This document shows, in pieces, positions 35,485 to 51,587 of a stretch of DNA of 64,000 nucleotides (positions within the stretch are counted from its first letter, which is position 1; the number at the start of each line of letters is the position of its first letter). Source of the stretch: Deltaproteobacteria bacterium (GTDB taxonomy: Bacteria; Desulfobacterota; Syntrophia; Syntrophales; UBA5619); assembly GCA_021372415.1 (NCBI GenBank), contig JAJFUM010000373.1, positions 902 through 64,901 on the forward strand, in the 5' to 3' direction. The notes beneath the pieces were generated by a model. That model was given only the letters and a program-made list of their open reading frames with translations. It was not told the origin of the DNA and did not search any database. Position numbers and translations under genes: made by a program.

Positions 35485-35647
35485 TCACTCGCATTTCGTC
35501 CCTTTCCAAACGCGTTCCTTCCCCTTAATACAGGTATGGGAAAGAATCGTCCTCCATAGTAAAAGTATCGGCAAACCCCGTGGAGTGTTTCGTAAAGTAA
35601 AATGCCCCGGCGCCTGATGTTCAAAGCCGGTCGAACGAAATTCAATC

Positions 35648-36526
35648 ATGAATGATGAAACTGAAGAGTTGAATAAGAGACAGTGGCAGGATTTTTTTCA
35701 GGGATATTCCGCTGATTGGAACCATCTGTATGAAGGGACGAGTTACGATTCTTATGGAAAACGATTTCGTGCAAAATATGCCATGGATTTTGTGGACAAA
35801 TATATTTCATCCGGCAAAAGAGTTCTCGATATCGGATGCGGAACCGGATGGGTATCCTGTGCCCTTGCCCGTAAAGGGTATGAGGTGACGGGGGTTGATT
35901 TTTCGGCAAAGATGCTTGAGGTTGCCGATAAGAATGCCCATCAGATGGGGGTTGATTCACGATGCTCTTTCATATTGGGAGAAATTGATAAGCTAAAAAT
36001 AAAAGAAAACCAGTTTGATGCAATCATAGCCCTGGGGTATTTGGAGTATATTTTAGACCCCCAACCCGTTGTCAGCGAAATGTACAGATTGCTGGCCCCG
36101 TCAGGAATTGTGGTGGCTCAGATATGGAATCGCATCCGGATGGTTCAGCTGTTTAATTTCAAAGAAGGCCCGGGACGGATAGCGAATCCCCATGGGGTAT
36201 ACTTAAAAATACTTAAATGGATTCAGATGGTTCGTAAATCTGATGTCGGCCATCCGGTTTCTTCTGGACTTAAGCAGCCAGGGTTAATGAGAAAGTGGTA
36301 CACCCCATCGATGCTTGACAGAACGATGCACCAAGCCGGTTTTTTGAAACATGAGCATAGGGGGCATCTTTTTAGCGGGTTCAAGTATGGGGATCGACTT
36401 ATTTTTTCAGATAAAACCACCATACTTTTAGAGAATGGGCTGGTTCGGTTGAGTCAACTCATTTTATTTAAAAAAATGCAATTGCTGGGCGAAAATTATA
36501 TTGCCGTATACCATCGTCCCAAGTGA
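35648..36526 (+). CDS. class I SAM-dependent methyltransferase
   Basis: Motif I VLDIGCGTGWVS with acidic post-I GVDFS. Lies in low-GC DNA. Confidence 0.85.
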   Translation: MNDETEELNKRQWQDFFQGYSADWNHLYEGTSYDSYGKRFRAKYAMDFVDKYISSGKRVLDIGCGTGWVSCALARKGYEVTGVDFSAKMLEVADKNAHQMGVDSRCSFILGEIDKLKIKENQFDAIIALGYLEYILDPQPVVSEMYRLLAPSGIVVAQIWNRIRMVQLFNFKEGPGRIANPHGVYLKILKWIQMVRKSDVGHPVSSGLKQPGLMRKWYTPSMLDRTMHQAGFLKHEHRGHLFSGFKYGDRLIFSDKTTILLENGLVRLSQLILFKKMQLLGENYIAVYHRPK

Positions 36527-36692
36527 AAGTTATGGATTGACCATTAAGGTTGGTAGGTATAAGAAGCATAAATCAGCAACTCCTTTTTTGTAAATCCAAT
36601 ATCGAGAACCCCTACAAAGCAGATAGCGTAGCCCCTGGGAATATTGGCAATCTTCATTCTGAAGCGACCTGTTCAGGTTTATGGGGGACAAG

Positions 36693-37733
36693 ATGAAAAA
36701 GGTAAGAACGACCATCAAATCTGCATTAAAGAGGACTCAGCTGTTTAAGCTTCTTGCTCCTTGGTATTCTGGCAGCGGAAGCATTTTAATGTTCCACCGG
36801 ATTTGTAGAAAAGAAGAAAAATCTTTTTTCTTGAACAATTCTGCCCTTGAAATCACTCCGGAATATCTCGAGGCGATCATTCTCTCTTTTAAAAAGAGGG
36901 GGTATGTTTTTGTGCCTATAGGGGATGTTCCGCGGATTTTAAATATCCACCAAAAGCAGAAGTTTGTTGTTTTCACTTTTGATGACGGATACTTGGATAC
37001 TTATGCTTTGGCATATCCCATTTTTCGCAAGTATAAGGTTCCATTCACCATCTATGTCACGACGTCCTTTCCAGATGGTGATGCCGTGTTATGGTGGTAT
37101 ATGCTGGATGCGCTTGTGATACAAAATAGAACGGTCGAATTTGATCTTGATGGAACGCATTATGGCTTTAATTGCTGCGACAATCAAAGCAAAGAGATGA
37201 CATTTATGGCAATTCAAAAAATTATTCAAAGCAGTAATCCTTCCCATTTTTCGAACGTCGTAGAGGCTGTGTTTGCAAAAAATGGAATCGATCGGCGGGC
37301 GACATCCGACAGGTTTGCAATCGGTTGGGAGAGTCTCATCGCAATGTCGAAAGACAAACTAGTAACGATCGGCGCACATACGGTGAACCATTTCTCGCTG
37401 AAAAATCTTTCAGAAGAAGAATTGAATAGCGAATTGCTGCTTTCGAAAAACAGAATAGAATCTAAAATCGATTTGCCGGTAAAGGCATTTTCGTATCCCT
37501 TTGGCGGAATAAACGAGGCGGGTTTAAGAGAGTTTGATGCTGTAAAAAGGGCGGGTTTTGAAACAGGGGTCACAACGAGACAGACAAATGTATTCAAGCA
37601 GCATAAATCCTATCTCACGTCGTTACCCAGAATAAATATTGATGGAAATATTGAGAGTTTTGCGAAGATTGAGTATGAATCAGGGTTTCTTCCGTTCTAC
37701 CGGGCGGGGTGTAAGGGGTTTGTGGCGGACTGA
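36693..37733 (+). CDS. polysaccharide deacetylase (NodB/CE4) family protein
   Basis: FTFDDGYLDTY, HTVNH, YPFG motifs. GGGGGA RBS before ATG 36693. Lies in low-GC DNA. Confidence 0.85.
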   Translation: MKKVRTTIKSALKRTQLFKLLAPWYSGSGSILMFHRICRKEEKSFFLNNSALEITPEYLEAIILSFKKRGYVFVPIGDVPRILNIHQKQKFVVFTFDDGYLDTYALAYPIFRKYKVPFTIYVTTSFPDGDAVLWWYMLDALVIQNRTVEFDLDGTHYGFNCCDNQSKEMTFMAIQKIIQSSNPSHFSNVVEAVFAKNGIDRRATSDRFAIGWESLIAMSKDKLVTIGAHTVNHFSLKNLSEEELNSELLLSKNRIESKIDLPVKAFSYPFGGINEAGLREFDAVKRAGFETGVTTRQTNVFKQHKSYLTSLPRINIDGNIESFAKIEYESGFLPFYRAGCKGFVAD

Positions 37734-37921
37734 TGGCTTGTCCTTCCCATCCTGTCCATGCTGGGTGCCGCGATTCAACGCCCCATTGGTCGGCCGCAAA
37801 GCCTGCCCAGCCATTACGTCTGACTTGTCTGCTTTTCTATGTGTTTAAGATAAAAATATAAAAGGAACTCTCTCGTGGATTTGTCCGAGCGTTCAGGAAG
37901 AGGAGTCGTTCTCCCTGTGTC

Positions 37922-39034
37922 CTAGAGGCGGCAGGCCGGCTGAGGCGTTCCCACAGGGGTCAGGACGATCTGCCAGATCTGGATGCTCCGGGCGCGGAAG
38001 GCGCCGGCGCAGGAAAGCAGGTAGTACTCCCACATCCTCTTGAAACGGCTGTCGTAGGCCCCCTTCAGGCCGTTCCAGGCCCGCTGGAAGTTAGCGTTCC
38101 AGGCCATCAGCGTCTTATCGTAATGGGGGCCCATGTTGTGCCAGTCCTCCACAACGAAGAGCCCCTCCACGGCCCGGCTGATCTGAGCAATCGAGGGCAG
38201 CATCCCGTTGGGGAAGATGTAGCGGTTGATCCAGGGGTCACAACCGATCGTGGAGCAGTTGCCGCCGATCGTGTGGAGCAGGAAAGTTCCTCCGGACCGG
38301 AGGCACCTGTGGACGACCTCCATAAACTGCCGGTAATTGCGGCTCCCCACATGTTCGAACATGCCGATGGAGACGACCTTGTCGAAGCAACCCTGGATGT
38401 CCCGGTAGTCGCAGTCCAGGATCGTCACGGGCAGCCCCTTGCACCAGTCGCGGGCGTAGCGGATCTGCTCCGCCGAGATGTTCACGGCCGCCACGGCGCT
38501 GCCGTATCGCTCCGCCGCGTATTTTGCAAGCCCCCCCCAGCCGCAACCGATGTCCAGGAGCTTCTCCCCTGCGGCCAGGCCGAGTTTCCGGCAGATGAGC
38601 TCAAGCTTTTTGATCTGGGCCTCGGCCAGATCGCCGGTCCCATCGAAATAGGCGCAGCTGTACTGCAAAAGGGGATCGAGGAAGGCCCGGAAAAGTTCGT
38701 TCCCGAGGTTGTAATGCCGTTCGGCGACCACCGGCGAGCGGGACCGGCTCTGGCGGTTCATGAGGAGGGACGCGAGGTATATCGGCAGGAGACTGAGCGC
38801 TCCGCGGAGCTTCTCGTCGAGGCGGGCGCCGAGGAGACGGCAGATGAACTCGTCGATCCGTGGGCAGTCCCACCAGCCGTCCATATAGGCCTCGCCGAGG
38901 CCCAGGCTCTGCTGGCGCAGGACCCGGCCGTAGAAGGTGTCGTTGTGGACCTGGATGTCCCAGGGTTCGGGGCCGTTGACGGTGATGTCCGCCTTGCTCA
39001 GCAGCCCCTCGACAAAAGGCTTTGCCTTGAGCAT
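37922..39034 (-). CDS. cfa: cyclopropane-fatty-acyl-phospholipid synthase
   Basis: GLGEAYMDGWWDC, SAM motif LLDIGCGWGGLA, GMFEHVG. GGAGGAA RBS favours ATG 39034 over the ORF start 39049. Confidence 0.9.
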   Translation of the reverse strand: MLKAKPFVEGLLSKADITVNGPEPWDIQVHNDTFYGRVLRQQSLGLGEAYMDGWWDCPRIDEFICRLLGARLDEKLRGALSLLPIYLASLLMNRQSRSRSPVVAERHYNLGNELFRAFLDPLLQYSCAYFDGTGDLAEAQIKKLELICRKLGLAAGEKLLDIGCGWGGLAKYAAERYGSAVAAVNISAEQIRYARDWCKGLPVTILDCDYRDIQGCFDKVVSIGMFEHVGSRNYRQFMEVVHRCLRSGGTFLLHTIGGNCSTIGCDPWINRYIFPNGMLPSIAQISRAVEGLFVVEDWHNMGPHYDKTLMAWNANFQRAWNGLKGAYDSRFKRMWEYYLLSCAGAFRARSIQIWQIVLTPVGTPQPACRL

Positions 39035-39346
39035 AGTCGATTCCTCCATGAACGGTCTCGGCGATGACTGGAAACGGATCCCCTCCGCCGGACACGGTGC
39101 ATTGAAGTCGACTCCCTCCTTTGCTGGACAGACTAACGCTTCCAGGAATAAATGTCAATGGGGTGCCGCAAAGAGGCCCCGCTTGCGGCCGCCACCGCAA
39201 GATCGGCGGGCTCCGGCCTGTGCCGATGCCGGGGCCTTCTGCCGGTTTGACGGGTCGTTGCACTCTCGTGGGCCTTATGGTAAAATCCATCATCAGAACA
39301 CCCCTGCCCTTCAGAAGAAACCGAACCACATCATAGAGGAGATGCC

Positions 39347-41530
39347 ATGGATGCTGCGGAGCTGATCCGAAAGGCCAAATCAGAGGGCCGGACCGCCCTG
39401 TCCGAAGCCGAATCCAAAGAGGTCCTGAGATCCTGCGGCGTGCCGGTCGTAGAGGAGGCCCAGGCCTCGACCCCGCAGGAGGCCGCCCAGAGGGCGGCCG
39501 GGATCGGCTTTCCCGTCGTCCTCAAGGGGCTCGGCGCCAGGCTGACCCACAAGACGGAGCGGGGCCTCGTCCATCTGAACCTGAAGGATGCCGAAGAGGT
39601 CCTCCGGGCGGCCGAATCGGTGGCCGCCTCGGCGGGCGCCGACCTGGAGGGCTTCCTCATCCAGCCGATGCTCCCGGGACGCCGCGAATTCGTGGCGGGC
39701 CTCTTTCACGACGCCCAGTTCGGCCCGGTCGTCATGTTCGGCCTTGGAGGCGTCTTCACCGAGGCACTCGACGACGTCGTCTTTAGACTCGCACCCTTTG
39801 ACGGGGACTGCGCCGGCCGGATGATCGACGAGCTTCGCGCGTCCAAGCTCCTGGGGCCATTCCGCGGCGAGAAGGCTGCGGACCGGGAGGCGCTGGCCAG
39901 CGCCCTGGTCGGCCTTTCGCGTCTGGCGACGGACCGGCCGGAGGTGACCGAGGCGGACATCAATCCACTCCTCGTCGGGCCGGACGGCCGGGTGACGGCT
40001 GTCGACGCCCTGATCATCCTGGGCGAGCGGCCCGCGGCAAAAGCGACCCTGCCGCCGGTCGATCCGGTTGCGATCGGGAAGCTCTTCTATCCCCGGTCCA
40101 TCGCCTTCATCGGGGCCTCGGCGACCTTCGGCAAATGGGGATACATGCTCTTCTGCAATGTGGCCGCAGGGGGATTCCAGGGGCCGATCTATCTGGTCAA
40201 CGCCAAGGGCGGCCAGATCACCGGACGGCCGACCTTCAAGACCGTGGGGGAGATCCCGGGGCCCGTCGACCTGGCCGTGGTCACGATCCCGGCTGCGAAG
40301 GTCCTGGACCTGTTCCCCCAGCTCAAGGCCAAGAAGGTCCGGAGCATGCTCCTGATCACCTCTGGTTTTGCCGAGACGGGTGCCGAGGGACGGCGCCTGG
40401 AGGAGGAACTGGTAAAGGCGGCCCGGGAAGCGGGGATCCTGATCCTCGGCCCAAACACCATGGGGATCTGCAACCCCCACGGGGCCCTCTTCTGCTGCGG
40501 ATCGGCCGTCCGGCCCGCACCCGGCACGACGACCCTCGTGTCCCAGTCGGGGAACCTTGGGGTCCAGCTTCTGGGTTTTGCCGAGCACGAGGGGATCGGC
40601 ATCCGCGCCTTCGGCGGCTCGGGAAACGAGGCGATGATCACGATCGAGGACTACATGGAGTGCTTTGAGGTCGACGAGTTGACCCGGACGGTGGTCCTCT
40701 ATCTGGAGAGCATCAAAAATGGCCGGCGCTTCTTCGAGGCGGCCCGGCGTGTGGGGAGGACCAAACCGGTGGTCATGCTCAAGGGCGGGCGCACCCAGGC
40801 GGGAAACCGCGCCGCAGCCAGCCACACCGGGGCCCTTGCCTCGAACCTCCGGATACTGGATGCCGCAGTGCGTCAGGCGGGCGTGGTCGTGGCCGACCAG
40901 CCGATGGACCTGCTGGATCTGTCGGCCGCCTTCTCGTCCCTGCCGCTGCCGCGTGGCAACCGGGTTGCCGTGATGACCCTGGGCGGGGGATGGGGGGTCG
41001 TGGCCTCGGACCTATGCGTTGAGAACGGCCTGGCGATTCCGGATCTCTCCGAGGATCTGATCGCCCGGATCGACAAGATCCTCCCGCCCTACTGGAGCCG
41101 CTCCAACCCCATCGACCTGGTGGGGGAGTTCGCCCCCCAGATCCCGATGGACGTGATCAGGGAACTGATCGAGTGGGACGGCTGCGACGCGATCATCCAC
41201 CTGGGGATCGTCGGCCGCCTCGGCTTCCTCAAGCAGATGATCGCCGCGATCGAGGCGGTCGATCCGGTGATGGACCGCAAGTTCCTCGGTGCGGTCCCCA
41301 CGGCCCTGGTCGATTTCGAGAAGCACTACATCGGCCACACGGTCCGCCTCATGGAACAGCACGGCAAACCCATCCTCGGGGTCAATCTCCTGCCCGAAGA
41401 GAACGCCCGGACGGTCATGGAGGTCGCGGGGTGCCCCTACAAGGGGGTCTGCTTCCTCACGCCCGAGCGGGCGGTCAAGGCCCTGGCGCGGATGCACACC
41501 TACAGGCTCTGGCGGGACGGCGAAGGTTGA
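39347..41530 (+). CDS. ADP-forming acetyl/acyl-CoA synthetase (NDP-forming, ACD family), beta-alpha fused
   Basis: N-terminal ATP-grasp part (aa 1-220), then CoA-binding domain (YPRSIAFIGAS), ligase-CoA domain with phosphohistidine loop AASHTGALAS, then a C-terminal domain. Confidence 0.85.
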   Translation: MDAAELIRKAKSEGRTALSEAESKEVLRSCGVPVVEEAQASTPQEAAQRAAGIGFPVVLKGLGARLTHKTERGLVHLNLKDAEEVLRAAESVAASAGADLEGFLIQPMLPGRREFVAGLFHDAQFGPVVMFGLGGVFTEALDDVVFRLAPFDGDCAGRMIDELRASKLLGPFRGEKAADREALASALVGLSRLATDRPEVTEADINPLLVGPDGRVTAVDALIILGERPAAKATLPPVDPVAIGKLFYPRSIAFIGASATFGKWGYMLFCNVAAGGFQGPIYLVNAKGGQITGRPTFKTVGEIPGPVDLAVVTIPAAKVLDLFPQLKAKKVRSMLLITSGFAETGAEGRRLEEELVKAAREAGILILGPNTMGICNPHGALFCCGSAVRPAPGTTTLVSQSGNLGVQLLGFAEHEGIGIRAFGGSGNEAMITIEDYMECFEVDELTRTVVLYLESIKNGRRFFEAARRVGRTKPVVMLKGGRTQAGNRAAASHTGALASNLRILDAAVRQAGVVVADQPMDLLDLSAAFSSLPLPRGNRVAVMTLGGGWGVVASDLCVENGLAIPDLSEDLIARIDKILPPYWSRSNPIDLVGEFAPQIPMDVIRELIEWDGCDAIIHLGIVGRLGFLKQMIAAIEAVDPVMDRKFLGAVPTALVDFEKHYIGHTVRLMEQHGKPILGVNLLPEENARTVMEVAGCPYKGVCFLTPERAVKALARMHTYRLWRDGEG

Positions 41531-43344
41531 TCGTAGAGGCTGTCGAGGATCTCCTGGTAGGACCGGGTGATCTCCCGGCGGCGGATCTTGAGCGTCGGGG
41601 TCACCTCGCCGGAAGCCTCGGTGAAGTCCCGGGGAAGGATGGCGAAGCGGCGGACCGCCTCATGGGGGGACAGGCGCGCGTTCACCGACTCGATGTGCGC
41701 CTCGATAAGGGAGCGGATGCGGGGATGCAAGGCGAGATCCTTCGGGTCCGTCGGGATCCCCTCTTTTTCAGCAAAGCCGCGGATCTCCGCCGCATCAAGG
41801 GTGATCAGGGCGCTCAGGTAGGGGCGCCGGTCTCCGTGGACCATCACGTGGCTCACGAAGGGATGGGCCTTGATCAGGTTCTCGATGTTCTGCGGGGCGA
41901 TATTCTTCCCGCCCGCCGTGATGAGGATGTCCTTTTTGCGGTCGGTGATCCGGATAAATCCCTCCGCGTCGATCTCGGCGATGTCCCCGGTGTGGAACCA
42001 GCCGTCGGCGTCGATCGCCTGGGCGGTCGCCTCGGGGTCCCGGTAGTAGCCCTTGAAGAGCCCCTGGCCGCGGAGCAACAGTTCTCCCCCTTCGCCGAGT
42101 CTGGCCTCGATCCCGTCGATCAACTTCCCTACGGTCCCGAACTTGAAGCACTCCGGCCTGTTGACCGAAACCGGGGCGACGGTTTCCGTCAGGCCGTAGC
42201 CCTCGAGGATCAGCAAGCCCGCGGCGTAGAAGAACTCCAGAAGCTTGATCGACATCGGCGCGCCGCCCGAGAGCAGGTGCTTCACGCGGCCGCCGAAGAT
42301 GGACCGGAGCTTCCGGAAGACGAGGCGGTCCGCCAGGGCGTGCTCAATGGACAGGGCAAAGGGCAGAGGCCGGCCGGCCATTCGGTAGGGCGAGGCGCGG
42401 TGTCCCACCGACATGGCCCAGGCGAAGATGCGCCGTTGCATGGGCGATGCCTGGGCGATCCCCTGTATGATCCGGGCATGGATCTTTTCGAAGACCCGCG
42501 GGACGCCCACGAAGTGGGTGGGGCGCAGCTCGCGGCAGTTGTCGATCAGCTTCTCGACGCCCTCGGCGAAGATCCCCCGCATCCCCACGTGAAAGATCGC
42601 GTACACGGTCAGCCGCTGGAGCATGTGGGTGAGCGGCAGGTAGGCGATCCCGAAGTCCTCGGTCGTGATGTGCTGCGTCTGGACGGCATGGATCGCCGTG
42701 TAATAGAGATTCGCGTGGGTGATCAGCGCCCCCTTCGGAGGCCCGGTGGTCCCGGAGGTGTAGGCGATCGTGGCCAGGTCCTCGGGGGAGACGGCGCGCC
42801 AGGCGGCTTCGAAGCGTTCCGGGGCCTCCCGGTCCCTTTGATCGCCCAGTTTCTTGAGATCCGCGAAGAGGCTCACACCGGCAGGAAGGGTCCGATGTTT
42901 GGTTTCGAAGAGGATCACCTGCTCGGGGAGGCCCGTGGCGTCGCGGATCGGGAGTATCCGGTCGAGGGCTTCGTCGTTCTCGCAGAAGATCAGGCGGCAC
43001 GCGCTGTGGCGGACGATGTGTTCCATCTCCCAGGCGCCAGCCGTGGGATAGATCCCCACCACGACCGCCCCGGCGGTGAGGGCCGCCATGTCCGCGTCGG
43101 ACCATTCGCTGCGGGTTCTGCTCATGATTGCGATGCGGTCCCCCTTCCGGATACCGCGGTCCAGGAGCCCCATCGTCGCCCGGCGGAGGTTGGCGTAGGC
43201 CTCGCACCAGGTCGTCGGCGTCCAGATGCCGTTGATCTTGCTCGTCTTGAGGACATGGTCGCCGAAATGCGCGGCCTGTTGGATGAACATGCTTGGGACG
43301 GTCGGCGGATCGTAAGGCTCCTGCGGAGCGGGGTTCCTGGCCAT
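41500..43344 (-). CDS. AMP-forming long-chain acyl-CoA ligase (FadD-like)
   Basis: AMP-binding motifs YTSGTTGPPKGA, GYGLTET, TGDIAEIDAEGFIRITDRKKD. Its 3' end overlaps the convergent gene by 31 nt. Confidence 0.9.
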   Translation of the reverse strand: MARNPAPQEPYDPPTVPSMFIQQAAHFGDHVLKTSKINGIWTPTTWCEAYANLRRATMGLLDRGIRKGDRIAIMSRTRSEWSDADMAALTAGAVVVGIYPTAGAWEMEHIVRHSACRLIFCENDEALDRILPIRDATGLPEQVILFETKHRTLPAGVSLFADLKKLGDQRDREAPERFEAAWRAVSPEDLATIAYTSGTTGPPKGALITHANLYYTAIHAVQTQHITTEDFGIAYLPLTHMLQRLTVYAIFHVGMRGIFAEGVEKLIDNCRELRPTHFVGVPRVFEKIHARIIQGIAQASPMQRRIFAWAMSVGHRASPYRMAGRPLPFALSIEHALADRLVFRKLRSIFGGRVKHLLSGGAPMSIKLLEFFYAAGLLILEGYGLTETVAPVSVNRPECFKFGTVGKLIDGIEARLGEGGELLLRGQGLFKGYYRDPEATAQAIDADGWFHTGDIAEIDAEGFIRITDRKKDILITAGGKNIAPQNIENLIKAHPFVSHVMVHGDRRPYLSALITLDAAEIRGFAEKEGIPTDPKDLALHPRIRSLIEAHIESVNARLSPHEAVRRFAILPRDFTEASGEVTPTLKIRRREITRSYQEILDSLYDQPSPSRQSL

Positions 43345-43739
43345 GGCTTTCTGCCCTGATCCCTTCTGAAGTATGGATGCCTGCCGGAGATGACTTGAAA
43401 CCGTGACCTTTGATGGGATTGGAGCGGCTGTCCCAAAGGTCTTGAAGCCAGACCTTTATAAAGCCAAATGCCGGTAATGGCAAGAGAAAAAAGAAAGCCT
43501 GGATTAATAACGAGCGCTCGCTCTATTTTCTTGACGCGCCCTTCCCGCCGCTGTAGAATGCTGAGAAATCAAAGGCCATGAGGCCCTCCAGAGGTGATCC
43601 GGGCGGGCTTCAGCGCCATCGACCGTTTTGCCCTCAGGAAGGAACCGGCCCCGGCCGGTCCCGTACCGCCAAACCAACCATTGTCTTTCCCCGGCGTTGC
43701 GGAGGGTCCCGCTGGACTGGAGAAAATAAGGAGGTCGCC

Positions 43740-44948
43740 ATGGATTTCACCCTGTCGGACAAGATGCAGGCTATCATCGGGATGATGCGGGAGTTCGTGG
43801 ACAAGGAGCTCATCCCCCTGGAGCCGGAATTCCTCGATCGGGATTTCGGGGAGATGGTCCCTTTCCTGGAAGAGAAACGGGCGATCGTCCGGCAGATGGA
43901 GCTCTGGGCGCCGAACCACCCGAAGGAGTACGGCGGGATGGGGCTCGATCTGATGGAGCACGCCCTTGTCTCGGAGGTCCTCGGACGGACGCCGATCGGC
44001 CACTACGTCTTCGGCTGCCAGGCCCCGGACGCTGGGAACATTGAGATCCTCCATAGATACGGCACCGAGGCCCAGAAAGGGCAGTGGCTCGCTCCCCTGG
44101 TTGCAGGCAGGATCCGGAGCTGCTTCTCCATGACGGAGGTGGATCTGCCCGGTTCGAACCCCGTGATGATGGACACGACAGCCGTCTGCGAGGGGGACCA
44201 GTACGTGATCAACGGCCAGAAGTGGTACTCCACAGCTGCAGACGGCGCGGCCTTGGCCATCGTCATGGCCGTGACCAACCCCGAGGCACCGCCCCATCTG
44301 CGGGCGAGCATGATCATCGTCCCAACGGACACCCCCGGCTTCAACCTGGTCCGGAACATCTCCATCATGGGTCACGCCGGGAGCGGTTACTTCAGCCACG
44401 GAGAGATCCTCTACCAGTCCTGCCGGGTCCCGGTCGCGAACCTCCTGGGGCCCGAGGGATGGGGGTTCGTGATCGCCCAGGAGAGGCTCGGCCCGGGCCG
44501 GATTCACCACTGCATGCGGTGGCTGGGGATCTGCAGCCGGGCCTTCGATCTGATGTGCAAGAGGGCACAGGAGCGGGTCATCACCCCGGACGGAAAGACC
44601 CTCGCGACCCGGCAGATCATCCAGGCCTGGATCGCCGAATCCGCGGCAGAGATCCAGGCGGCCCGGCTGATGACGCTCCACGCGGCCTGGAAGATCGAGA
44701 CCCTGGGGGCCAAGGAGGCCCGGGAGGAGATCTCGCTGATCAAGTTCTATGTGGCGGACGTTCTCCAGCGGGTCGTCGACCGGGCCCTCCAGGTCCACGG
44801 GGGCCTCGGGATGACGGACGATACGATCCTCGCCTTCTTCTACCGCCATGAACGGGCGGCGAGGATCTACGACGGCGCCGACGAGGTCCACAAGGTGGCC
44901 GTGGCCCGGCGGATTCTTAAGGAATATGCCGGACGGACGGTCCGGTAA
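43740..44948 (+). CDS. acyl-CoA dehydrogenase family protein, FadE2/ACAD10-11-like subtype
   Basis: AGGAGG RBS. CFSMTE, YVINGQKWYST, RLGPGRIHHCMR, and YDGADEVH in place of the canonical YEGT catalytic-base motif. Confidence 0.9.
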   Translation: MDFTLSDKMQAIIGMMREFVDKELIPLEPEFLDRDFGEMVPFLEEKRAIVRQMELWAPNHPKEYGGMGLDLMEHALVSEVLGRTPIGHYVFGCQAPDAGNIEILHRYGTEAQKGQWLAPLVAGRIRSCFSMTEVDLPGSNPVMMDTTAVCEGDQYVINGQKWYSTAADGAALAIVMAVTNPEAPPHLRASMIIVPTDTPGFNLVRNISIMGHAGSGYFSHGEILYQSCRVPVANLLGPEGWGFVIAQERLGPGRIHHCMRWLGICSRAFDLMCKRAQERVITPDGKTLATRQIIQAWIAESAAEIQAARLMTLHAAWKIETLGAKEAREEISLIKFYVADVLQRVVDRALQVHGGLGMTDDTILAFFYRHERAARIYDGADEVHKVAVARRILKEYAGRTVR

Positions 44949-44963
44949 GCCGGGAGGGCGGTC

Positions 44964-45656
44964 ATGGCGACTTTTCAGGAATTCCGGGACCGGGTCCCCC
45001 TCTCCAGGGAGGAGATCTGCAGGGATTTTTTAGCCGAAAACCGGGAACGGATTCCCGTCAAGAAGGACGAGAAGGCCGTCAGGAACCTCGTTAAGATCTT
45101 CGATGCGACGCTGGCGATCAGCAGCCGAAAGGGATTTCAGGCGATGAGCGTCCGCGATCTGGCCCGGGAGACGGGGCTTTCCATGGGGGCCCTGTACACC
45201 TACATCGCCAGCAAGGAGACCCTCCTCGGCATGATCCAGCACCACGGGCGACGGATCCTGATGAAGGTCCTCACGGCCGAGATCGAAGGGGGCGCTGACC
45301 CCCGGGAAAAACTGATCCGGGCGATCGAAACCCACCTGTACTTGAGCGAGGCCATGCGTCCCTGGTTCTATTTCGCCTACATGGAGGCCAAGCACCTCGC
45401 ACGGGAGGCCCAGAGACGGGCCATCGAGATGGAGCTCATGACCGAAGGGCTCCTCAGCGACATCCTCACCCAGGGGCTTGAAACAGGGGCCTTCCGCACG
45501 GTCGATCCCCATCTGACGGCCGCGGTCTTGAAGGCGATGCTCCAAGACTGGTATCTCAAACCTTGGAAGTATCACCAGCGCGGCGTCTCGGTGGACGAGT
45601 ATGCTGGCTTTGTCATCGACCTGACAGGGACGTTTCTCTGGAGTGATAGAGAATAA
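44964..45656 (+). CDS. TetR/AcrR-family transcriptional regulator
   Basis: N-terminal HTH MSVRDLARETGLSMGALYTYIASKE. GGGAGGG RBS. Confidence 0.85.
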   Translation: MATFQEFRDRVPLSREEICRDFLAENRERIPVKKDEKAVRNLVKIFDATLAISSRKGFQAMSVRDLARETGLSMGALYTYIASKETLLGMIQHHGRRILMKVLTAEIEGGADPREKLIRAIETHLYLSEAMRPWFYFAYMEAKHLAREAQRRAIEMELMTEGLLSDILTQGLETGAFRTVDPHLTAAVLKAMLQDWYLKPWKYHQRGVSVDEYAGFVIDLTGTFLWSDRE

Positions 45657-45668
45657 GAGGAGGGGATC

Positions 45669-46736
45669 ATGGATCTTACGGATGCGACCCGGCCGGTCCG
45701 CGAGGGCGAACAGTTCGATGCCGCAAAGGTAGAGGCTTTCCTCAAGGAGAGGATCCCCGGCCTTTCCGGAGAACTAACGGTCAGGCAGTTTCCGGGCGGC
45801 CATTCGAACCTGACCTACTTGGTCCGGGTGGGTGGACGGGAGCTGGTCTTCCGGCGCCCCCCTCTGGGCCGCAAGGCCAAGACGGCCCACGACATGGGCC
45901 GGGAGTTCCGGATCCTCCAGGCCCTCCGGCCGGCCTTCCCCTACTGTCCGGAGCCTCTGGCCTACACGGATGACGAGACGATCATCGGCTCCCCCTTCTA
46001 CGTGATGGAGCCGATCCGGGGGATCATCCTGAGAAAGGACCTCCCGGCTGGGCTGAACTTCACGCCCGTGGAGGCGCGGCGCCTCTGCGAGCGACTGATC
46101 GACGTCTTCGTCGAGCTCCACCGCGTGGATTACAGGAGGATCGGCCTGGGGGACTTCGGCAGGCCGGAAGGGTATGTGAAGAGGCAGGTGGAGGGGTGGT
46201 CCGAACGCTACCGGGCCGCCAGGACCCCGGACGCACCGGACTGCGAGGCGGTCATGGCCTGGCTCCAGGAGAGGATCCCCCCCGAGAGCCCGCTCGTCTC
46301 GGTGATCCACAACGATTACCGCTTCGACAATGTGGTCCTCGACCCGAAAGACCCCTTCCGGATCGTCGGCGTCCTCGACTGGGAGATGGCGACGATCGGC
46401 GATCCTCTGATGGATCTGGGCGGGGCACTCGCCTACTGGGTGGACCGGGCGGACCCGCCCTCTATGCAGGCGATCCGGATGGTCCCGACGCATCTCGAGG
46501 GGATGTTCACCCGTGTCGAGCTGGTCCGCCGGTATGCGGAACAGATGGGGACGGCCGTCGAGAACGTGGATTTCTACTACTGCTTCGGCCTCTTCCGCCT
46601 GGCTGTGATCGCCCAGCAGATCTACTGGCGGTTCTACCACGGGCAGACCAAAGACGAGCGCTTCAAATGGATGATCGTCGCCATTCAGGTCCTTGAGCAG
46701 AGGGCCATGCAGGTGATCGGCCGTTCGGACCTCTGA
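45669..46736 (+). CDS. APH-fold phosphotransferase (ACAD10/11 N-terminal kinase-domain / LvaA-like)
   Basis: Catalytic loop VIHNDYRFDNVV (HxDxxxxN), VLDWEMATIGDPLMD metal-binding loop, N-terminal GGHSNLTY nucleotide loop. Confidence 0.85.
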   Translation: MDLTDATRPVREGEQFDAAKVEAFLKERIPGLSGELTVRQFPGGHSNLTYLVRVGGRELVFRRPPLGRKAKTAHDMGREFRILQALRPAFPYCPEPLAYTDDETIIGSPFYVMEPIRGIILRKDLPAGLNFTPVEARRLCERLIDVFVELHRVDYRRIGLGDFGRPEGYVKRQVEGWSERYRAARTPDAPDCEAVMAWLQERIPPESPLVSVIHNDYRFDNVVLDPKDPFRIVGVLDWEMATIGDPLMDLGGALAYWVDRADPPSMQAIRMVPTHLEGMFTRVELVRRYAEQMGTAVENVDFYYCFGLFRLAVIAQQIYWRFYHGQTKDERFKWMIVAIQVLEQRAMQVIGRSDL

Positions 46737-46930
46737 GCGTCTTTGGCTCCAGCCAGGCCAGTCGTGAGGCGGATTGTTTCACGTGAAACAATCTTGAGGA
46801 TGCGGCCTCCCAAGAAGGGGGGAGAAGCTCCAGCGCCCGTTCCGAAATCTCCTCCATCTGGAGTACACCGGAATTGGACTGGATGTGAACGAGGTTTGGA
46901 GAGGACTTAAGAAACAGACAAGGAGGAGGT

Positions 46931-47689
46931 ATGGACTGCTTCAGTCTGAAAGGGAAGACCGCCCTGGTCACCGGGGCGAGCCGGGGGATCGGCGAGGCGA
47001 TCGCCCGGATGCTGGCCAGCCGTGGCGCAAGGATGATCCTGATCAGCCGCAAGATCGAAGGGCTCCGGTGCGTGGAGGAGGAAATCCGCCGGACGGGGGG
47101 CGAAGCGGAGTCCTTGGCCTGTCACGCCGGCGATGTGGCGCAGATCGACGCCCTATTCGAGGAGATCGGGAAACGGGGCCACCGTCTCGACATCCTCGTG
47201 AACAACGCCGGAACAAATCCCTTCTTCGGGGATGTCCTCAGCGCCGACGAAAGGGCCTGGGACAAGACCTTCGATGTGAACCTGAAAGGCTACTTCTTCA
47301 TGAGCCAGCACGCGGCCAAGCTCATGCAGAAAGGGGGAGGCGGGGCCATCGTGAACGTGGCCTCGGTCAACGGCGTCCGGCCTGCCCCATTCCAGGGAAT
47401 CTATTCGATCACCAAGGCGGGGATCATTGCCATGACCAAATCCTATGCAAAGGAACTGGCCCCCTACCATATCCGGGTGAACGCGCTCCTGCCGGGCCTG
47501 ACGGATACCAAGTTCACCGCAGTCCTGACCCAGAATCCGGAAATCATGAAGATGGTCCTTCCCACGATCCCCATGGGGCGGTTCGCCAAGCCCCAGGAGA
47601 TGGCCGGCGCCGTCCTCTATCTGGTCTCGGAGGCCGCCTCTTACACGACGGGGATCTGCCTGACCGTGGACGGCGGGATGCTGGCGTAG
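46931..47689 (+). CDS. SDR-family oxidoreductase
   Basis: TGASRGIGEAIA, NNAG, catalytic YSITK. AGGAGGAGG RBS. Confidence 0.9.
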   Translation: MDCFSLKGKTALVTGASRGIGEAIARMLASRGARMILISRKIEGLRCVEEEIRRTGGEAESLACHAGDVAQIDALFEEIGKRGHRLDILVNNAGTNPFFGDVLSADERAWDKTFDVNLKGYFFMSQHAAKLMQKGGGGAIVNVASVNGVRPAPFQGIYSITKAGIIAMTKSYAKELAPYHIRVNALLPGLTDTKFTAVLTQNPEIMKMVLPTIPMGRFAKPQEMAGAVLYLVSEAASYTTGICLTVDGGMLA

Positions 47690-47806
47690 CGCAGATCCCG
47701 CCTTTGCGGCGGGGAAAAGTCTCCCAGGGAAGCTTGGTTTCCGAGGGAGGAGAAATGGCCTTGGCCAGTGGCGGCTGGTCGGGAAAGGATTCAGCAAGGG
47801 CTGATT

Positions 47807-48493
47807 TCAGAAGAGAGACTCCCGCCAGCCGCACTGCCGGTCGGTTTCGTCCTGGAGATCCAGCATCGCCTTCTCGACCTCCTTCCGGACTGCCTCGAAG
47901 GCATCGCCATCCAGCACCGCAGGGACCGGGATCGGCGTTCCCCAGTGCACGAGGATCCTGCTGAAAGGCTTCGGGATCAGGAAGCGGTCCCAACTCTTTA
48001 GGATCCAGGCCCGGTTGACGGAGATGGCAAAGGGGATGATCGGGACGCCGGAGAGTTGGGCCATGCTGATGAGCCCTCCTTTGATGATGCCCCGGGGGCC
48101 TTGGGGGCCATCCACGACGTGGACGGCAAAGGAATGTTCGGCCAGGTCCTCGACCAGCGCGGTCAGGGCCCTTCGGCCGCCCCGGGAGGAGGACCCGCGG
48201 ACCGGTCGGAAGTTGAGACGCCGGTAGAGGTCCGCGGCCAGGTCGCCGTCGCGGCTCTGGCTGATCATGACCGACGGGGTGTAGCGGCCGAATCTGTGGG
48301 CATAGCCCAATACGGTGAGTATCCGCTGGTGCCAGATGGCCGCGATCAGTTTGCCGCCCCCGTCCAAATACCCCCGGATCCTTTCCTCTCCAAAGGCCTG
48401 AACGCGGATCGTGCTGAAATAGAGACGCAGGACGGCGTATACGGCGGGGATCAGGCCGTGTTTCAAGGCGAATCTGGAAATCCCCTTGATCAT
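47807..48493 (-). CDS. DUF374-type lysophospholipid acyltransferase-family protein
   Basis: Pattern AAIWHQR...MISQSRDGDLAA...RGSSSRGG...VDGPQGPRG is typical of DUF374. Confidence 0.75.
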   Translation of the reverse strand: MIKGISRFALKHGLIPAVYAVLRLYFSTIRVQAFGEERIRGYLDGGGKLIAAIWHQRILTVLGYAHRFGRYTPSVMISQSRDGDLAADLYRRLNFRPVRGSSSRGGRRALTALVEDLAEHSFAVHVVDGPQGPRGIIKGGLISMAQLSGVPIIPFAISVNRAWILKSWDRFLIPKPFSRILVHWGTPIPVPAVLDGDAFEAVRKEVEKAMLDLQDETDRQCGWRESLF

Positions 48494-48534
48494 GACCCTT
48501 AAATCCGGGTTTGGCGACTGAAGGCAAGGCCTTC

Positions 48535-48573
48535 AAAAACTTGGGCGTACCTTGATGAAAGTACGCCCAAGTT
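48535..48573 (-). terminator. rho-independent terminator of the carboxyltransferase gene
   Basis: Perfect 13-bp stem AACTTGGGCGTAC / GTACGCCCAAGTT with a 10-nt loop. On the minus strand it runs straight into TTTTTG. Confidence 0.8.
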
Positions 48574-48614
48574 CGTTGGAGGATTGTGAGGCAGAAGCCT
48601 CGATGCTTTGGAAC

Positions 48615-50069
48615 TTACTTCGCCTTGGCCTCAGGTGCCGCTGGCGGCTTCACGCTCTCCGGCATCGGCTCGATGCCATATTTCCACTTGAGGTACTGCT
48701 CGCCCGTTGCCGGGTAGAGACTGTAGACCAGCAGGTCTTCCTCGGTCTTGGCCAGATCGCCGATCTTCTGCTTGTTCGCTTCCATTTCCGGCTCCAGATA
48801 ATCGGCGGGACGGCCGGTTACGGGGGTCTGGCCTCTCTTGTGCCGTTTCAGGACCACCTTGGAGATCTCCGGATCGATTGGGGTCGGGGTCTTTCCATAG
48901 AGGCCGTAGACGAGGTCGGCGAACTGGTTGTTCACCATCTTGTAGCGACCGGCGACCACGTTCATGACGGCCTGGACGCCGACGATCTGGGATGTCGGGG
49001 TGACCAGGGGCGGCGTACCGGCATCCTTCCTGGTCCTCGGGATCTCGGCGTAAACCTCGTTCAGACGATCCAGAGCGTTCATTTCCTTGAGCTGGCTGAC
49101 CAGGTTGGAGATCATCCCGCCAGGGATCTGGTGGGCCAGAACGCCCGCGTCGATCAGGGAGAGCTTGTTCGTGGCCAGGTGTTTCTGATACTTGGGGGCG
49201 ATCTTCTCGAGGTGCGCCCCAAGGGCGATGAGCTTGCGTACGTCAAGACCGGTATCACGCTTGGTCCCCTGCAGGGTGACAACGAGCGGCTCGATGGCGG
49301 GCATCGAGGTCCTCAGGGCATAGGGAGCCAGACAGGTGTCCACGATGTCGATCCCAGCTTCGATGGCCTTGATGTAGGTCATCGAAGCCATGCCGCTGGT
49401 GTAGTGGGTGTGGAGATGCAGGGGGACCTTGGTGATCTTCTTGAGTTCGGTGACCAGGGTGTAGATGTCGTAGGGTGACACGATCCCGGCCATGTCCTTG
49501 ATGCAGATGCTGTCAACGCCCATCGCCTCGAGCGACTTGGCCATCTTGATGTAGTAATCCAGGTTGAAGACGTCGCCGCCCATCCGGGGCTCCGTCAGGG
49601 AGTAGCAGATCACGCCCTCGAAGTGTTTCTTGTTGGCCTTGATCCGCTCCACGCAGGTCTCGAAGTTCCGGATGTCGTTCAGGGCGTCGAAGACCCGGAA
49701 GATGTCGATTCCCACCTCGCAGGACTTGTCCACGAAGGCCCGCACCACGTCATCGGCATAGTTCCGGTAACCGACCAGGTTCTGCCCCCTCAAGAGCATC
49801 GTAAAAGGGGTCTTCTTGATATACTTCTTCAGGACTTTTGGCCTTTCCCATGGGTCCTCACCGAGGAAGCGGTGCATCGTGTCGAAAGTCGCCCCGCCCC
49901 AAACCTCCATCGCCCAGAAACCCATTTCATCCATCTGTTCGGCGATGGGAAGCATGTCCTCTGTACGCATGCGGGTCGCGTAGATGGACTGATGACCGTC
50001 GCGGAAAGTGTTGTCCTGAATTTTTACGGGATTGACAGGTCCATCCTTCATGATATCCGCCATCTTCAT
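48615..50069 (-). CDS. carboxyltransferase (transcarboxylase 5S / oxaloacetate decarboxylase alpha / pyruvate carboxylase B type) without biotinyl domain
   Basis: NTFRDGHQS, MEVWGGATFD, KDMAG motifs. The protein ends ...PAAPEAKAK with no AMKM biotin-attachment domain. The start may be the third codon (ATG 50063), given the AAGGAG position. Confidence 0.9.
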   Translation of the reverse strand: MKMADIMKDGPVNPVKIQDNTFRDGHQSIYATRMRTEDMLPIAEQMDEMGFWAMEVWGGATFDTMHRFLGEDPWERPKVLKKYIKKTPFTMLLRGQNLVGYRNYADDVVRAFVDKSCEVGIDIFRVFDALNDIRNFETCVERIKANKKHFEGVICYSLTEPRMGGDVFNLDYYIKMAKSLEAMGVDSICIKDMAGIVSPYDIYTLVTELKKITKVPLHLHTHYTSGMASMTYIKAIEAGIDIVDTCLAPYALRTSMPAIEPLVVTLQGTKRDTGLDVRKLIALGAHLEKIAPKYQKHLATNKLSLIDAGVLAHQIPGGMISNLVSQLKEMNALDRLNEVYAEIPRTRKDAGTPPLVTPTSQIVGVQAVMNVVAGRYKMVNNQFADLVYGLYGKTPTPIDPEISKVVLKRHKRGQTPVTGRPADYLEPEMEANKQKIGDLAKTEEDLLVYSLYPATGEQYLKWKYGIEPMPESVKPPAAPEAKAK

Positions 50070-50186
50070 TCTCCTTCCTAGGGCATGTAAAAGGTGGTGA
50101 TTTTTTACTTTCTTTCCAAACTGCTAACGCTTCGCGCCTTTATATCGTATCCCAAACAGGGGTGTCAAGCCCATTCTGTGAAACTG

Positions 50187-50202
50187 AGCAATAATGGTGC
50201 CA
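50187..50202 (-). promoter_or_regulatory. sigma54 promoter TGGCAC-N5-TTGCT
   Basis: Reverse complement of 50187..50202 reads TGGCACCATTATTGCT, a full consensus match. Lies about 120 nt upstream of the carboxyltransferase start. Confidence 0.65.
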
Positions 50203-50495
50203 AGGGAGCGGCCAGCGTCCATCCCGGTGGCGCAATCCGACGAAAAAAGATAAAATCATTGAGGGGTTGAACGGTTGCGCGACCGCTGGGGAATGGTCCG
50301 GGTAGGCTGGAGATCGACCGGGGAGGACTATTGCATGCAGACGGCACCGTGAAAGGGTGCATGAAACGCACAGCCAGAGGAGGAAGAAATCTGGAAACCC
50401 TTTAAGATGTTCATCTGCACGAAAACGTGCTTAAAGTACACGCTGTGCCTTTGAAGCACGCCGTAATCAGGAAAAAAGTCGATTATCGGAACGGG

Positions 50496-51587
50496 TCATG
50501 ATGGACGCTTTAAAGACCTGGAGACATAGATTGGATTGGAAAAGATCCAGGGGCGGTAACGGCCAAAAAACATGAGGTCGGCCTCGATCCTGTAGGTTCC
50601 TGGTTCGCGGATCACTTCGGAGAGCGTCGTTCCCTGTCTCTGATGCAAGAGGGTTCCGTTGCGGATGATCCGGATTCGGGCGTTAGCCGGAAAAGAGACG
50701 GCAAGCTCTGCAAAATCGGAAAGAGAGAATTCATCCCCCATCGTTGCGGTTTGTGTTCCCTCTGTCAGGGTAAAGCGGAATCCCCTGGCGTCGTGCTTGC
50801 TGTCGAGGGAGACATAGGCGTGGCCGCTCCTGAGGGCCTGTAGGAGGGAGGCGATGTCCGCTGGGCTATCCCCGGTGAAGGGGGCTTCAGTCAGGACGTG
50901 GGTTCTGATCAGACGGAAGACCCTTCGGAAGGGAAAAACAGGGAGCTTGAAGCCGAGGATGCGATAAAGGGTATCGTGATTGTCCAATTCGCCGATCCCC
51001 ACGACGCGGCGCTCCCGGGTCAAGCGGTCCCAGCGGGTCAGCGTGACCGGCGAGGGGCCCCTGAGCAAAGAAGATGGGAAGGCGTAGCCGATCAAGGCGC
51101 GGCCGTAACCGGTCAGCCCCCTCTGCCAGTCCGTCATGAAGTCCCAGATGCCCAGGCCCGTGTAGCCGGTGACCGACCAGTCGGTCCAGGGGTAGTGTTT
51201 CACGTGAAACCGTTCGGTCCCCCCGTGGTCCGGATGGGCGATGAAGCCGATCCCGCCCCCGTCAGCTATGCGGTCGATGCAGGTCTGGGGGGACATCTCT
51301 TCCTGACCCGGCGAGGTTGAAATCGGATCGGACAGTCCGAAGGCGAGATAATGGTTGAAACGGGGGCTGATCTCCTCGCCGACCACCAGGAGCGTTCGTC
51401 CTTGCCACCCCTCAAGACCCTCTGCCCTTGCCTGAAGCGATGCATGGTCTGTGAGCATCAGAAAATCGATCCCGCTGTTGTTGGCTGCAGCGAGGATCTC
51501 CTGAACCGTCCTGCGTCCGTCGAAAGAATGGATAGAGTGCAGATGGATGACGCCTGCATGGTCGGTCCAGGATCCACGCGTCGTCAT
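50496..51587 (-). CDS. PHP-domain (CehA/McbA-like) metallohydrolase
   Basis: N-terminal HLHSIHSFDG and LMLTDH motifs of the PHP fold, with a C-terminal beta-rich domain. Confidence 0.7.
   Translation of the reverse strand: MTTRGSWTDHAGVIHLHSIHSFDGRRTVQEILAAANNSGIDFLMLTDHASLQARAEGLEGWQGRTLLVVGEEISPRFNHYLAFGLSDPISTSPGQEEMSPQTCIDRIADGGGIGFIAHPDHGGTERFHVKHYPWTDWSVTGYTGLGIWDFMTDWQRGLTGYGRALIGYAFPSSLLRGPSPVTLTRWDRLTRERRVVGIGELDNHDTLYRILGFKLPVFPFRRVFRLIRTHVLTEAPFTGDSPADIASLLQALRSGHAYVSLDSKHDARGFRFTLTEGTQTATMGDEFSLSDFAELAVSFPANARIRIIRNGTLLHQRQGTTLSEVIREPGTYRIEADLMFFGRYRPWIFSNPIYVSRSLKRPS

Follow-up and report, generated by a model that had tools for sequence, protein, structure and literature searches.

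In the mammalian proteins ACAD10 and ACAD11, 4-hydroxyacyl-CoA is phosphorylated and the phosphate is subsequently eliminated, which yields a 2-enoyl-CoA (PMC12440821, PMC11342911). No electron acceptor is required, and the kinase prefers the R enantiomer (PMC11342911). Action on 4-hydroxyacyl-CoA rather than on the free acid is the defining activity of this type of kinase. A separate kinase (Q63VL0) and a separate acyl-CoA dehydrogenase (ACAD) of Burkholderia pseudomallei were found to stand in for the domains of ACAD10 in an in vitro assay (Paquay et al. 2024, PMC11342911). As far as it is described in two of these papers, the Pseudomonas putida lva operon runs the same chemistry on levulinate (PMC12440821, PMC11342911). 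Here, a comparable locus was analyzed in a 64,000 nt stretch of DNA (referred to as the window) from a Deltaproteobacteria bacterium (GCA_021372415.1, contig JAJFUM010000373.1, positions 902 to 64,901). It contains an operon of four genes for an ACAD10/11-type ACAD, a TetR-family regulator, a stand-alone APH-fold kinase and a short-chain dehydrogenase/reductase (SDR). This operon is likely to be an auxiliary beta-oxidation module for fatty acids with a hydroxyl or keto group at C4.

A different activity was described in a 2026 preprint (Ye et al., bioRxiv 10.1101/2025.09.10.675409), according to which ACAD10 kinase domains, the enzyme of Caldalkalibacillus thermarum included, phosphorylate 1-O-alkylglycerols. 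In vitro, chimyl alcohol was a substrate of the C. thermarum enzyme and of several further homologues from prokaryotes, acetyl-CoA was reported as an activator of the ACAD10-type kinase and an ether-lipid phosphate as the substrate of the ACAD10 phosphatase domain (10.1101/2025.09.10.675409).

An initial annotation of the locus had assigned the ACAD to the ACAD10/11 (FadE2-like) subtype. This was confirmed, since diagnostic residues, ranking of PDB matches and phylogeny all agree. The best PDB matches of the window ACAD were the ACAD11 structures 2wbi and 8v3u (287-290 bits), compared to 170 bits for the best ordinary ACAD; ACAD11 (2wbi, 8v3u/8v3v) and the mycobacterial homologue 4hr3 together covered a range of 283-290 bits. 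For mouse ACAD11, the residues R626, H634 and R637, located on a single helix, and the catalytic D753 have been singled out for phosphate handling and catalysis (Rashan et al., PMC12440821). The helix faces the active site and was proposed to hold the 4-phosphate (PMC12440821). The equivalents of all four residues are kept in the window ACAD according to the alignment with the PDB sequences, in which the ACAD11 residue numbers are offset by one from the published numbering. The sequence ERLGPGRIHHCMR matches GRLGPGRIHHCMR of ACAD11 residue for residue, leaving the Arg/His/Arg helix intact. The catalytic Glu of the YEGT motif is replaced by Asp, with YDGADEVH being aligned to LADGPDEVH (D753) of ACAD11. 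The motifs RLGPGRIHHCMR and DGxDEVH were found to be invariant or nearly so in about 70 ACADs adjoining related kinases. In place of this Asp-type signature, the ordinary ACADs of the host genome carry a YEGT-type Glu or other residues. The window ACAD is predicted to eliminate phosphate from 4-phosphoacyl-CoA.

Two maximum-likelihood trees of the ACADs were calculated. The first, which included nine ordinary ACADs of the host genome, split the Asp-type ACADs from the ordinary Glu-base ACADs with a support of 100/100; the window ACAD was thereby separated with full support from the ordinary Glu-base FadE enzymes, with which it should have clustered if the initial assignment had been wrong. In the second, to which nine named animal ACAD10/11 sequences were added and in which four ordinary host ACADs served as outgroup, the window ACAD was placed in one clade with animal ACAD10/11 (support 100). 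Within this clade, a subclade of animal, Pseudomonas and Marinobacter sequences (ADGPDEVH) is sister to the window-type sequences (YDGxDEVH). Neither these trees nor that of the kinase contain LvaA, LvaC, proteins of B. pseudomallei or the kinase of C. thermarum.

The kinase, present as a single copy in the host genome, also fits the ACAD10/11 type proposed before, as every catalytic residue is kept and the PDB matches were 9o56 (350 bits, E 1e-103), 3dxp (204 bits) and the kinase domain of mouse ACAD11 (175 bits). Both the Asp and the Asn of the HxDxxxxN motif (HNDYRFDN) and the metal-binding DWE (VLDWE) could be identified. The catalytic Asp aligns with D220 of ACAD11, which is an Ala in the kinase-dead 8v3u, and with D214 of the C. 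thermarum kinase. VFRRPP and GREF align with R61 (the beta3 Arg, by which the canonical Lys is replaced) and E78 (the alphaC Glu) of 9o56, and KRQVEGW aligns with the position of R176, an Arg in the CoA-binding region of ACAD11. In the kinase tree, the window kinase belongs to a large bacterial clade apart from the animal kinase domains. It is predicted to be a 4-hydroxyacyl-CoA kinase, for which an alkylglycerol kinase activity is also possible.

Both halves of mammalian ACAD10/11 are homologous to the window proteins. Common to them are the Asp, Asn and DWE of the kinase and its Arg at the CoA site and, in the ACAD, a catalytic Asp instead of Glu as well as the Arg/His/Arg helix. Their ACADs also fall in the same clade. 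Whereas the mammalian proteins are fused, the window has two genes with a TetR gene between them.

The pairing of kinase and ACAD, a lack of which would have spoken against the initial annotation, is plainly conserved in related genomes. In a sample of a species collection, 80 loci with a kinase 53-75% identical to that of the window were obtained, 60 of which were flanked well enough to be judged. The titles of the 80 loci include Thermodesulfobacteriota, Bacillota, Spirochaetota, Planctomycetota, Acidobacteriota, SAR324, Bdellovibrionota and gammaproteobacteria. An Asp-type ACAD is encoded immediately upstream of the kinase in 46 of the 60 well-flanked loci. The arrangement ACAD-(TetR)-kinase-(SDR) is shared across several phyla, mostly in anaerobes, and within the host order the order ACAD-(TetR)-kinase-SDR was found in several families. 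It is far beyond chance, since the gene order recurs in dozens of genomes. Among 41 relatives of the host, 15 carry the kinase, 14 of which carry the Asp-type ACAD as well, and the other 26 have neither; these relatives do not count as independent cases, and genes in linkage are acquired and lost as one. In the single discordant relative (kinase without ACAD), the contig breaks just upstream of its TetR gene. The nearest kinase loci in the species collection came from an uncultured delta proteobacterium, Syntrophaceae and Syntrophus, which is in agreement with the anaerobic host assumed initially. The host genome is a 3.95-Mb metagenome-assembled genome of 477 contigs (97% complete, 6% contamination), and it is reasonable to regard its source as an anaerobic Syntrophales-like bacterium.

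Other arrangements were observed as well. In Pseudomonas (L097-L103, L111), the genes for histidine phosphatase, kinase and SDR occur together and the Asp-type ACAD is unlinked. Marinobacter (L109-L113) has two kinase/ACAD pairs from different subclades. One genome of the host order (G026) encodes three kinase paralogues that are 54-60% identical (L031, L032, L033), none of them adjoining an Asp-type ACAD, which is located on a fourth contig.

A search for longer proteins containing the kinase revealed many prokaryotic ACAD-kinase fusions, which are colinear with the gene order of the window and the reverse of the animal order. In three kinase-SDR fusions (P0027, P0039, P0047), the SDR part is 53-54% identical to the window SDR. 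Ligases with the same two Pfam domains as the AMP-forming ligase next to the operon (AMP-binding and AMP-binding_C_3) are fused to related kinases in P0067 and P0068. These natural fusions bear out the view that the SDR and this type of ligase belong with the kinase. Other fusion partners were a zinc-dependent alcohol dehydrogenase and an SDR together with a histidine phosphatase. The activating or CoA-handling partners (ACAD, AMP-forming ligases, CoA-transferase) are all enzymes of CoA thioesters, and an acyl-CoA is therefore favored as the kinase substrate. Kinases fused to an SGL/strictosidine-synthase-like (lactonase-type) domain, a GDSL esterase or a family III CoA-transferase were also detected (P0051, P0057-P0061, P0055, P0069), with Blastococcus or Geodermatophilus as named hosts among P0051 and P0057-P0061. 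The SGL, GDSL and CoA-transferase fusions are a hint that lactones or esters serve as substrates upstream of phosphorylation by the kinase.

The 4-hydroxyacyl-CoA route is preferred because the phosphate-binding ACAD is invariant, kinase and ACAD co-occur and the kinase is found fused to CoA enzymes. The types of ACAD and kinase, their linkage and the fusions thus support, at the sequence level, the candidate 4-oxo/4-hydroxy-acid pathway of the initial annotation. In such a pathway the acid would be activated by a CoA ligase, possibly the divergent long-chain-type enzyme, or a longer hydroxy fatty acid would enter by beta-oxidation down to 4-hydroxyacyl-CoA. The SDR would interconvert 4-oxoacyl-CoA and 4-hydroxyacyl-CoA, the kinase would convert the latter with ATP to 4-phosphoacyl-CoA, and the Asp-type ACAD would eliminate the phosphate by a transient use of FAD without net electron transfer. 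The resulting 2-enoyl-CoA would rejoin ordinary beta-oxidation. The TetR protein, probably acyl-CoA-sensing, would repress the operon from the palindrome and promoter at 43509-43559. The chemistry assumed here is that of the literature (PMC12440821, PMC11342911), with the chain length of the substrate, the role of the SDR, the ligand and operator of TetR and the physiological source of the substrate being presumed. As a suggestion, the substrate could derive from fatty acids with a hydroxy or oxo group, for example 10-hydroxystearate, the beta-oxidation of which stalls at 4-hydroxyacyl-CoA; other candidates are gamma-lactones and levulinate-like acids. Since no electron acceptor is needed, the reaction would suit a strict anaerobe.

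The solved structure closest to the window kinase, 9o56, has an equal length of 355 aa. In the literature search this PDB code was named in no relevant paper, and it was tied to the C. thermarum kinase solely because the length and seven residue numbers (R61, E78, D214, K216, N219, D234 and E236) agree exactly. With the exception of K216, which is replaced by Arg, all of these residues are kept in the window kinase. A 4-hydroxyacyl-CoA assay of the C. thermarum kinase was not found in the accessible text of the preprint (10.1101/2025.09.10.675409).

This relationship bears on another explanation, which we consider unlikely, namely that the kinase acts on a glycerolipid (1-O-alkylglycerol or monoacylglycerol, in ether-lipid salvage) with acyl-CoA only as an allosteric activator. 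The cassette and its usual phosphatase would then serve the salvage or remodelling of membrane lipids in anaerobes that make ether lipids. The matching residue numbers of the closest structure and the C. thermarum alkylglycerol kinase would fit to this, as would the chimyl alcohol activity reported for this enzyme and other prokaryotic homologues and the presence of a phosphatase gene with the kinase in 44 of the 60 loci, which mirrors the phosphatase domain of ACAD10 and its ether-lipid phosphate substrate. However, the in vitro activity comes from the preprint only, in the accessible text of which no kinetic comparison to 4-hydroxyacyl-CoA is given, and the two activities are not mutually exclusive. 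A glycerolipid substrate also leaves unexplained the near-perfect linkage, co-occurrence and fusion with an ACAD that has an invariant Arg/His/Arg helix, and does not account for kinases fused to acyl-CoA ligases and a CoA-transferase. Many of the hosts are former Deltaproteobacteria, Spirochaetes, Planctomycetota and Acidobacteriota, groups that include ether-lipid producers. Yet the kinase is also present in Pseudomonas and Marinobacter, which to our knowledge make no ether lipids.

The phosphatase domain of ACAD10 is of the HAD type, whereas in bacteria a gene for a histidine phosphatase is usually part of the cassette; in the window it is deleted. In most loci this gene of the histidine phosphatase superfamily (~236 aa, no specific family) immediately precedes the ACAD gene; it is present in the 44 well-flanked loci mentioned above and in every relative with enough contig. 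The cassette of a same-genus genome (G004, locus L019) was used for comparison. Using blastn, window 43253-43590 was aligned to L019 12148-11810 and window 43595-45000 to L019 11123-9725. Between these blocks, at window 43590/43595, 686 bp of G004 are missing, comprising a 49 nt leader and phosphatase codons 1-212. Residues 216-231 of the G004 phosphatase matched window 43603-43650 (tblastn). The window thus keeps the promoter and the palindrome on one side of the deletion and the last 20-odd phosphatase codons on the other. G004 keeps the phosphatase gene (L019 11053-11760, minus strand), and its region corresponding to window 43590-43660 is L019 11053-11809. No other copy was found in the host genome using the G004 phosphatase as query. 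The deletion may instead be an assembly artefact or a strain variant.

It could be asked whether the window operon is a decaying remnant that became non-functional after loss of its first gene. Apart from the ~690 bp missing relative to G004, including the start of the phosphatase gene, such a decay would be in line with the patchy distribution of the cassette in the genus (3 of the 14 other genomes) and with a same-family genome (G015), in which the kinase has an in-frame TAG and is unlinked from the ACAD. We regard it as extremely improbable, since the four remaining genes are intact full-length open reading frames with every catalytic residue present, their proteins are 91-96% identical to those of G004, promoter and palindrome are retained, and a phosphatase gene was likewise not detected in ~12 of the 46 well-flanked loci with ACAD. 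The kinase gene of G015 (L025/L035; L035 8001-9056, one TAG) has no neighboring ACAD, TetR or phosphatase gene, and an 86% identical Asp-type ACAD is encoded on a different contig, so that decay or rearrangement of this copy is conceivable.

The operon was further compared to the split systems of aerobic bacteria. As in the window, kinase and ACAD of B. pseudomallei are separate proteins, and they converted 4-hydroxyhexanoyl-CoA to hexenoyl-CoA without an LvaB partner in the assay (PMC11342911). B. pseudomallei is an aerobic betaproteobacterium, unlike the anaerobic host of the window. The lvaABCDE genes of P. putida KT2440 (Rand et al. 2017, as described in PMC12440821 and PMC11342911) encode a ligase, an SDR, a kinase and an ACAD that act via 4-phosphoacyl-CoA and follow the same logic. 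LvaA is only 29% identical to the kinase domains of ACAD10/11 (PMC11342911) and therefore represents a divergent branch. The split bacterial form is already characterized in aerobes. A literature search for such a module in syntrophs returned nothing. The statement that the chemistry is uncharacterized holds for anaerobes and has to be withdrawn for split bacterial proteins, for which it was shown in Burkholderia (PMC11342911).

The absence of an LvaB-like small subunit, noticed initially, was corroborated. LvaB is a small protein that is encoded beside the kinase of the lva operon and on which this kinase depends. The list of open reading frames contains none of LvaB size in or beside the window operon, and DUF6285 (PF19802) could not be detected in the host genome, which is 97% complete. 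In a Pseudomonas kinase-ACAD cluster, the small protein DUF6285 comes after the kinase, at the position of LvaB, from which we infer that LvaB is a DUF6285 protein. The lva operon has a sigma-54-type regulator, LvaR, whereas the only regulator in the window cluster is the TetR protein. Of the lva-like module proposed before, the logic of ligase, SDR, kinase and ACAD was found, but due to the missing LvaB, the TetR regulator in place of an LvaR-type one and the long-chain-type ligase the window does not contain a strict lva operon.

A kinase/ACAD cluster of Pseudomonas capeferrum (L128 3482-11417) was considered as an lva operon and rejected because of its different gene content. It encodes an APH kinase, DUF6285, a histidine phosphatase, an Asp-type ACAD, a zinc-dependent alcohol dehydrogenase, a TauD dioxygenase, BKACE and an MFS transporter, with a MalT/LuxR-type regulator divergent from the cluster. 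The motifs of its ACAD are RLAPARLTHCMR and YDGPNEVH.

The features of the locus are listed in Table 1. Using Pfam and NCBIfam scans, all six genes of the initial annotation were recovered at their positions, and the motifs quoted there (RLGPGRIHHCMR, YDGADEVH, HNDYRFDN and VLDWE) were found exactly in the translations.

Table 1. Features of the ACAD-TetR-kinase-SDR locus and its surroundings (window coordinates).
Feature	Position	Strand	Evidence
ADP-forming (NDP-forming) acyl-CoA synthetase, 727 aa	39347..41530	+	Pfam ATP-grasp_5, CoA_binding_2, Succ_CoA_lig, Ligase_CoA_2
AMP-forming acyl-CoA ligase, long-chain type, 614 aa	41500..43344	-	Pfam AMP-binding and AMP-binding_C_3
Candidate operator palindrome and sigma-70-like promoter	43509..43559	+	Promoter scan, comparison with G004
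Histidine phosphatase gene stub, approximately the last 23 codons	43591..43660	+	blastn/tblastn against G004 (L019)
ACAD10/11-type (FadE2-like) acyl-CoA dehydrogenase homologue, 402 aa	43740..44948	+	All three Pfam ACAD domains
TetR-family regulator, 230 aa	44964..45656	+	Pfam TetR_N and TetR_C_24
Stand-alone APH-fold kinase, 355 aa	45669..46736	+	Pfam, E 5e-54
Perfect 22-bp palindrome GATTGTTTCACGTGAAACAATC	46772..46793	no strand	Located in the kinase-SDR gap
Classical SDR, 252 aa	46931..47689	+	Pfam adh_short

The intergenic distances are 15 nt (ACAD-TetR), 12 nt (TetR-kinase) and 194 nt (kinase-SDR). The ATG at position 43740 was taken as the true start of the ACAD, because homologues can be aligned from residue 1 and the sequence AAGGAGG is located just upstream. 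The AMP-forming ligase gene is divergent from the ACAD operon. It is convergent with the synthetase gene, and the 3′-ends of the two overlap by 31 bp (41500-41530). Further upstream, a low-GC island (35600-37750, 44% compared to ~63%) with a methyltransferase gene at 35648-36526 and a polysaccharide deacetylase gene at 36681-37733 looks like foreign DNA.

The SDR matched NCBIfam NF005446 with 406 bits, which is above the cut-off of 373; no function is attached to this family. In the PDB, DHRS4 ranked on top with a score hardly better than that of FabG, and this ranking is therefore uninformative with respect to the substrate. Orthologues with 58-76% identity were found 3′ of the kinase in 29 of the 60 well-flanked loci. 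The SDR is predicted to be a 4-oxoacyl-CoA/4-hydroxyacyl-CoA oxidoreductase with a role similar to that of LvaD. A TetR gene lies between ACAD and kinase in 30 of the 60 loci. The window TetR matched the Bacillus FadR family of NCBIfam below the cut-off (E 9e-11), and its nearest named relatives are, by weak matches, acyl-CoA-responsive regulators of the FadR type. It is a probable repressor of the operon.

For the AMP-forming ligase, the best NCBIfam match was FadD11 with 415 bits. As this is below the cut-off of 950, no orthology to FadD11 is claimed. The ligase is linked to the cassette only in the host genome, G004 and G032, and is not core to the cassette. Homologues of the synthetase (62-66% identity) were found upstream of the cassette in seven Syntrophales-type loci. 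Because this neighborhood is limited to Syntrophales, a functional link between synthetase and cassette is uncertain.

The synthetase matches also concern a further explanation, according to which the module acts on another phosphorylatable acyl-CoA. Examples are the conversion of 4-hydroxybutyryl-CoA to crotonyl-CoA, as an oxygen-insensitive but ATP-costly alternative to the radical dehydratase, or the use of a hydroxyl-bearing intermediate from one of the aromatic, alicyclic or alkane pathways that are typical of Syntrophales. At the family level, the synthetase matches 4-hydroxybutyrate-CoA and 3-hydroxypropionate-CoA ligases. However, these NCBIfam matches fall far short of the cut-offs and an acetate-CoA ligase matches equally well, the link of the synthetase to the cassette is restricted to Syntrophales and the adjacent ligase is of the long-chain type. 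In favor of this explanation, the host genome is rich in ACAD paralogues; the window-type subclade is also distinct from that of animals, Pseudomonas and Marinobacter, so that the substrate range may differ. No sequence feature speaks for a short or cyclic substrate, and the explanation is considered very unlikely.

In the intergenic region upstream of the ACAD, a sigma-70-like promoter (TTGACG-17-TAGAAT, 43531-43559) was identified ~180 nt upstream of the ACAD gene. With 10 of 12 matches, it was the best site between 39000 and 48600. The palindrome AACGAGCGCTCGCT (43509-43522) abuts the −35 box and is a candidate operator. Both elements are kept in G004. A shared TetR operator was searched for and rejected, as neither a common palindrome nor an enriched 8-mer was found upstream of the ACAD in ~60 loci; the palindrome is shared only with the same-genus genome. 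The second palindrome, GATTGTTTCACGTGAAACAATC, is also kept in G004 and is limited to the genus among the loci checked; it is a possible regulator site or hairpin. The only other near-copy of its core in the genome is located at 51195-51212, within a conserved gene (50496-51587, FHVKH) without a Pfam match. It was rejected as a paired site and is probably coincidental, because it lies inside a conserved coding region. An Rfam scan of 39000-50500 revealed no riboswitch or leader and a single sub-threshold chance match to mir-302 (32 bits compared to a threshold of 55). In the terminator scan, sites were no more frequent than in shuffled sequence.

Several observations weigh against the 4-hydroxyacyl-CoA route. 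The window ACAD is 41-48% identical to animal ACAD10/11 and belongs to a separate bacterial subclade, and the kinase, with 30-35% identity to the animal kinase domains, is placed in a separate subclade as well. The assays with 4-hydroxyacyl-CoA come from other systems and none from cassette-type enzymes. According to the preprint (10.1101/2025.09.10.675409), the C. thermarum kinase was characterized as an acetyl-CoA-stimulated 1-O-alkylglycerol kinase and not as a 4-hydroxyacyl-CoA kinase, and the authors call the relation between the two activities unclear. The phosphatase, the usual head of the cassette, has no role in the proposed pathway; since it is deleted in the window, the window copy may work differently or be decaying. 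In a Pfam scan of the neighboring genes, no beta-oxidation genes were found to flank the operon, and from where a syntroph would obtain 4-hydroxy acids is a matter of conjecture.

It is quite unlikely, although it would lead beyond plain 4-hydroxy-acid catabolism, that the ancestral unit is a set of four parts (histidine phosphatase, Asp-type ACAD, kinase and SDR), which was re-created in animals as the HAD-kinase-ACAD protein ACAD10 and which in anaerobes perhaps serves an undescribed lipid pathway. In such a pathway, alkyl- or acyl-glycerols might be salvaged or turned over, or hydroxyacyl-CoAs might be proofread by a cycle of phosphorylation and dephosphorylation. If this were true, the phosphatase deletion in the window compared to G004 would be a ready-made natural comparison.

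In itself, the locus is an expected homologue; the cassette is real and widely conserved, and its chemistry is already known. A phosphatase belongs to the set in bacteria as it does in animals. The conserved cassette and its fusions bear on the dispute whether 4-hydroxyacyl-CoA or alkylglycerols are the substrate of the ACAD10/11-type kinase. With the 4-hydroxyacyl-CoA route, the recently discovered removal of a 4-hydroxyl group by phosphorylation and flavin-assisted elimination would be extended to strictly anaerobic syntrophic fatty-acid degraders. The route would account for the passage of hydroxy and oxo fatty acids through the 4-hydroxy block in beta-oxidation, and its redox-neutral chemistry would fit the energy-limited lifestyle of a syntroph.

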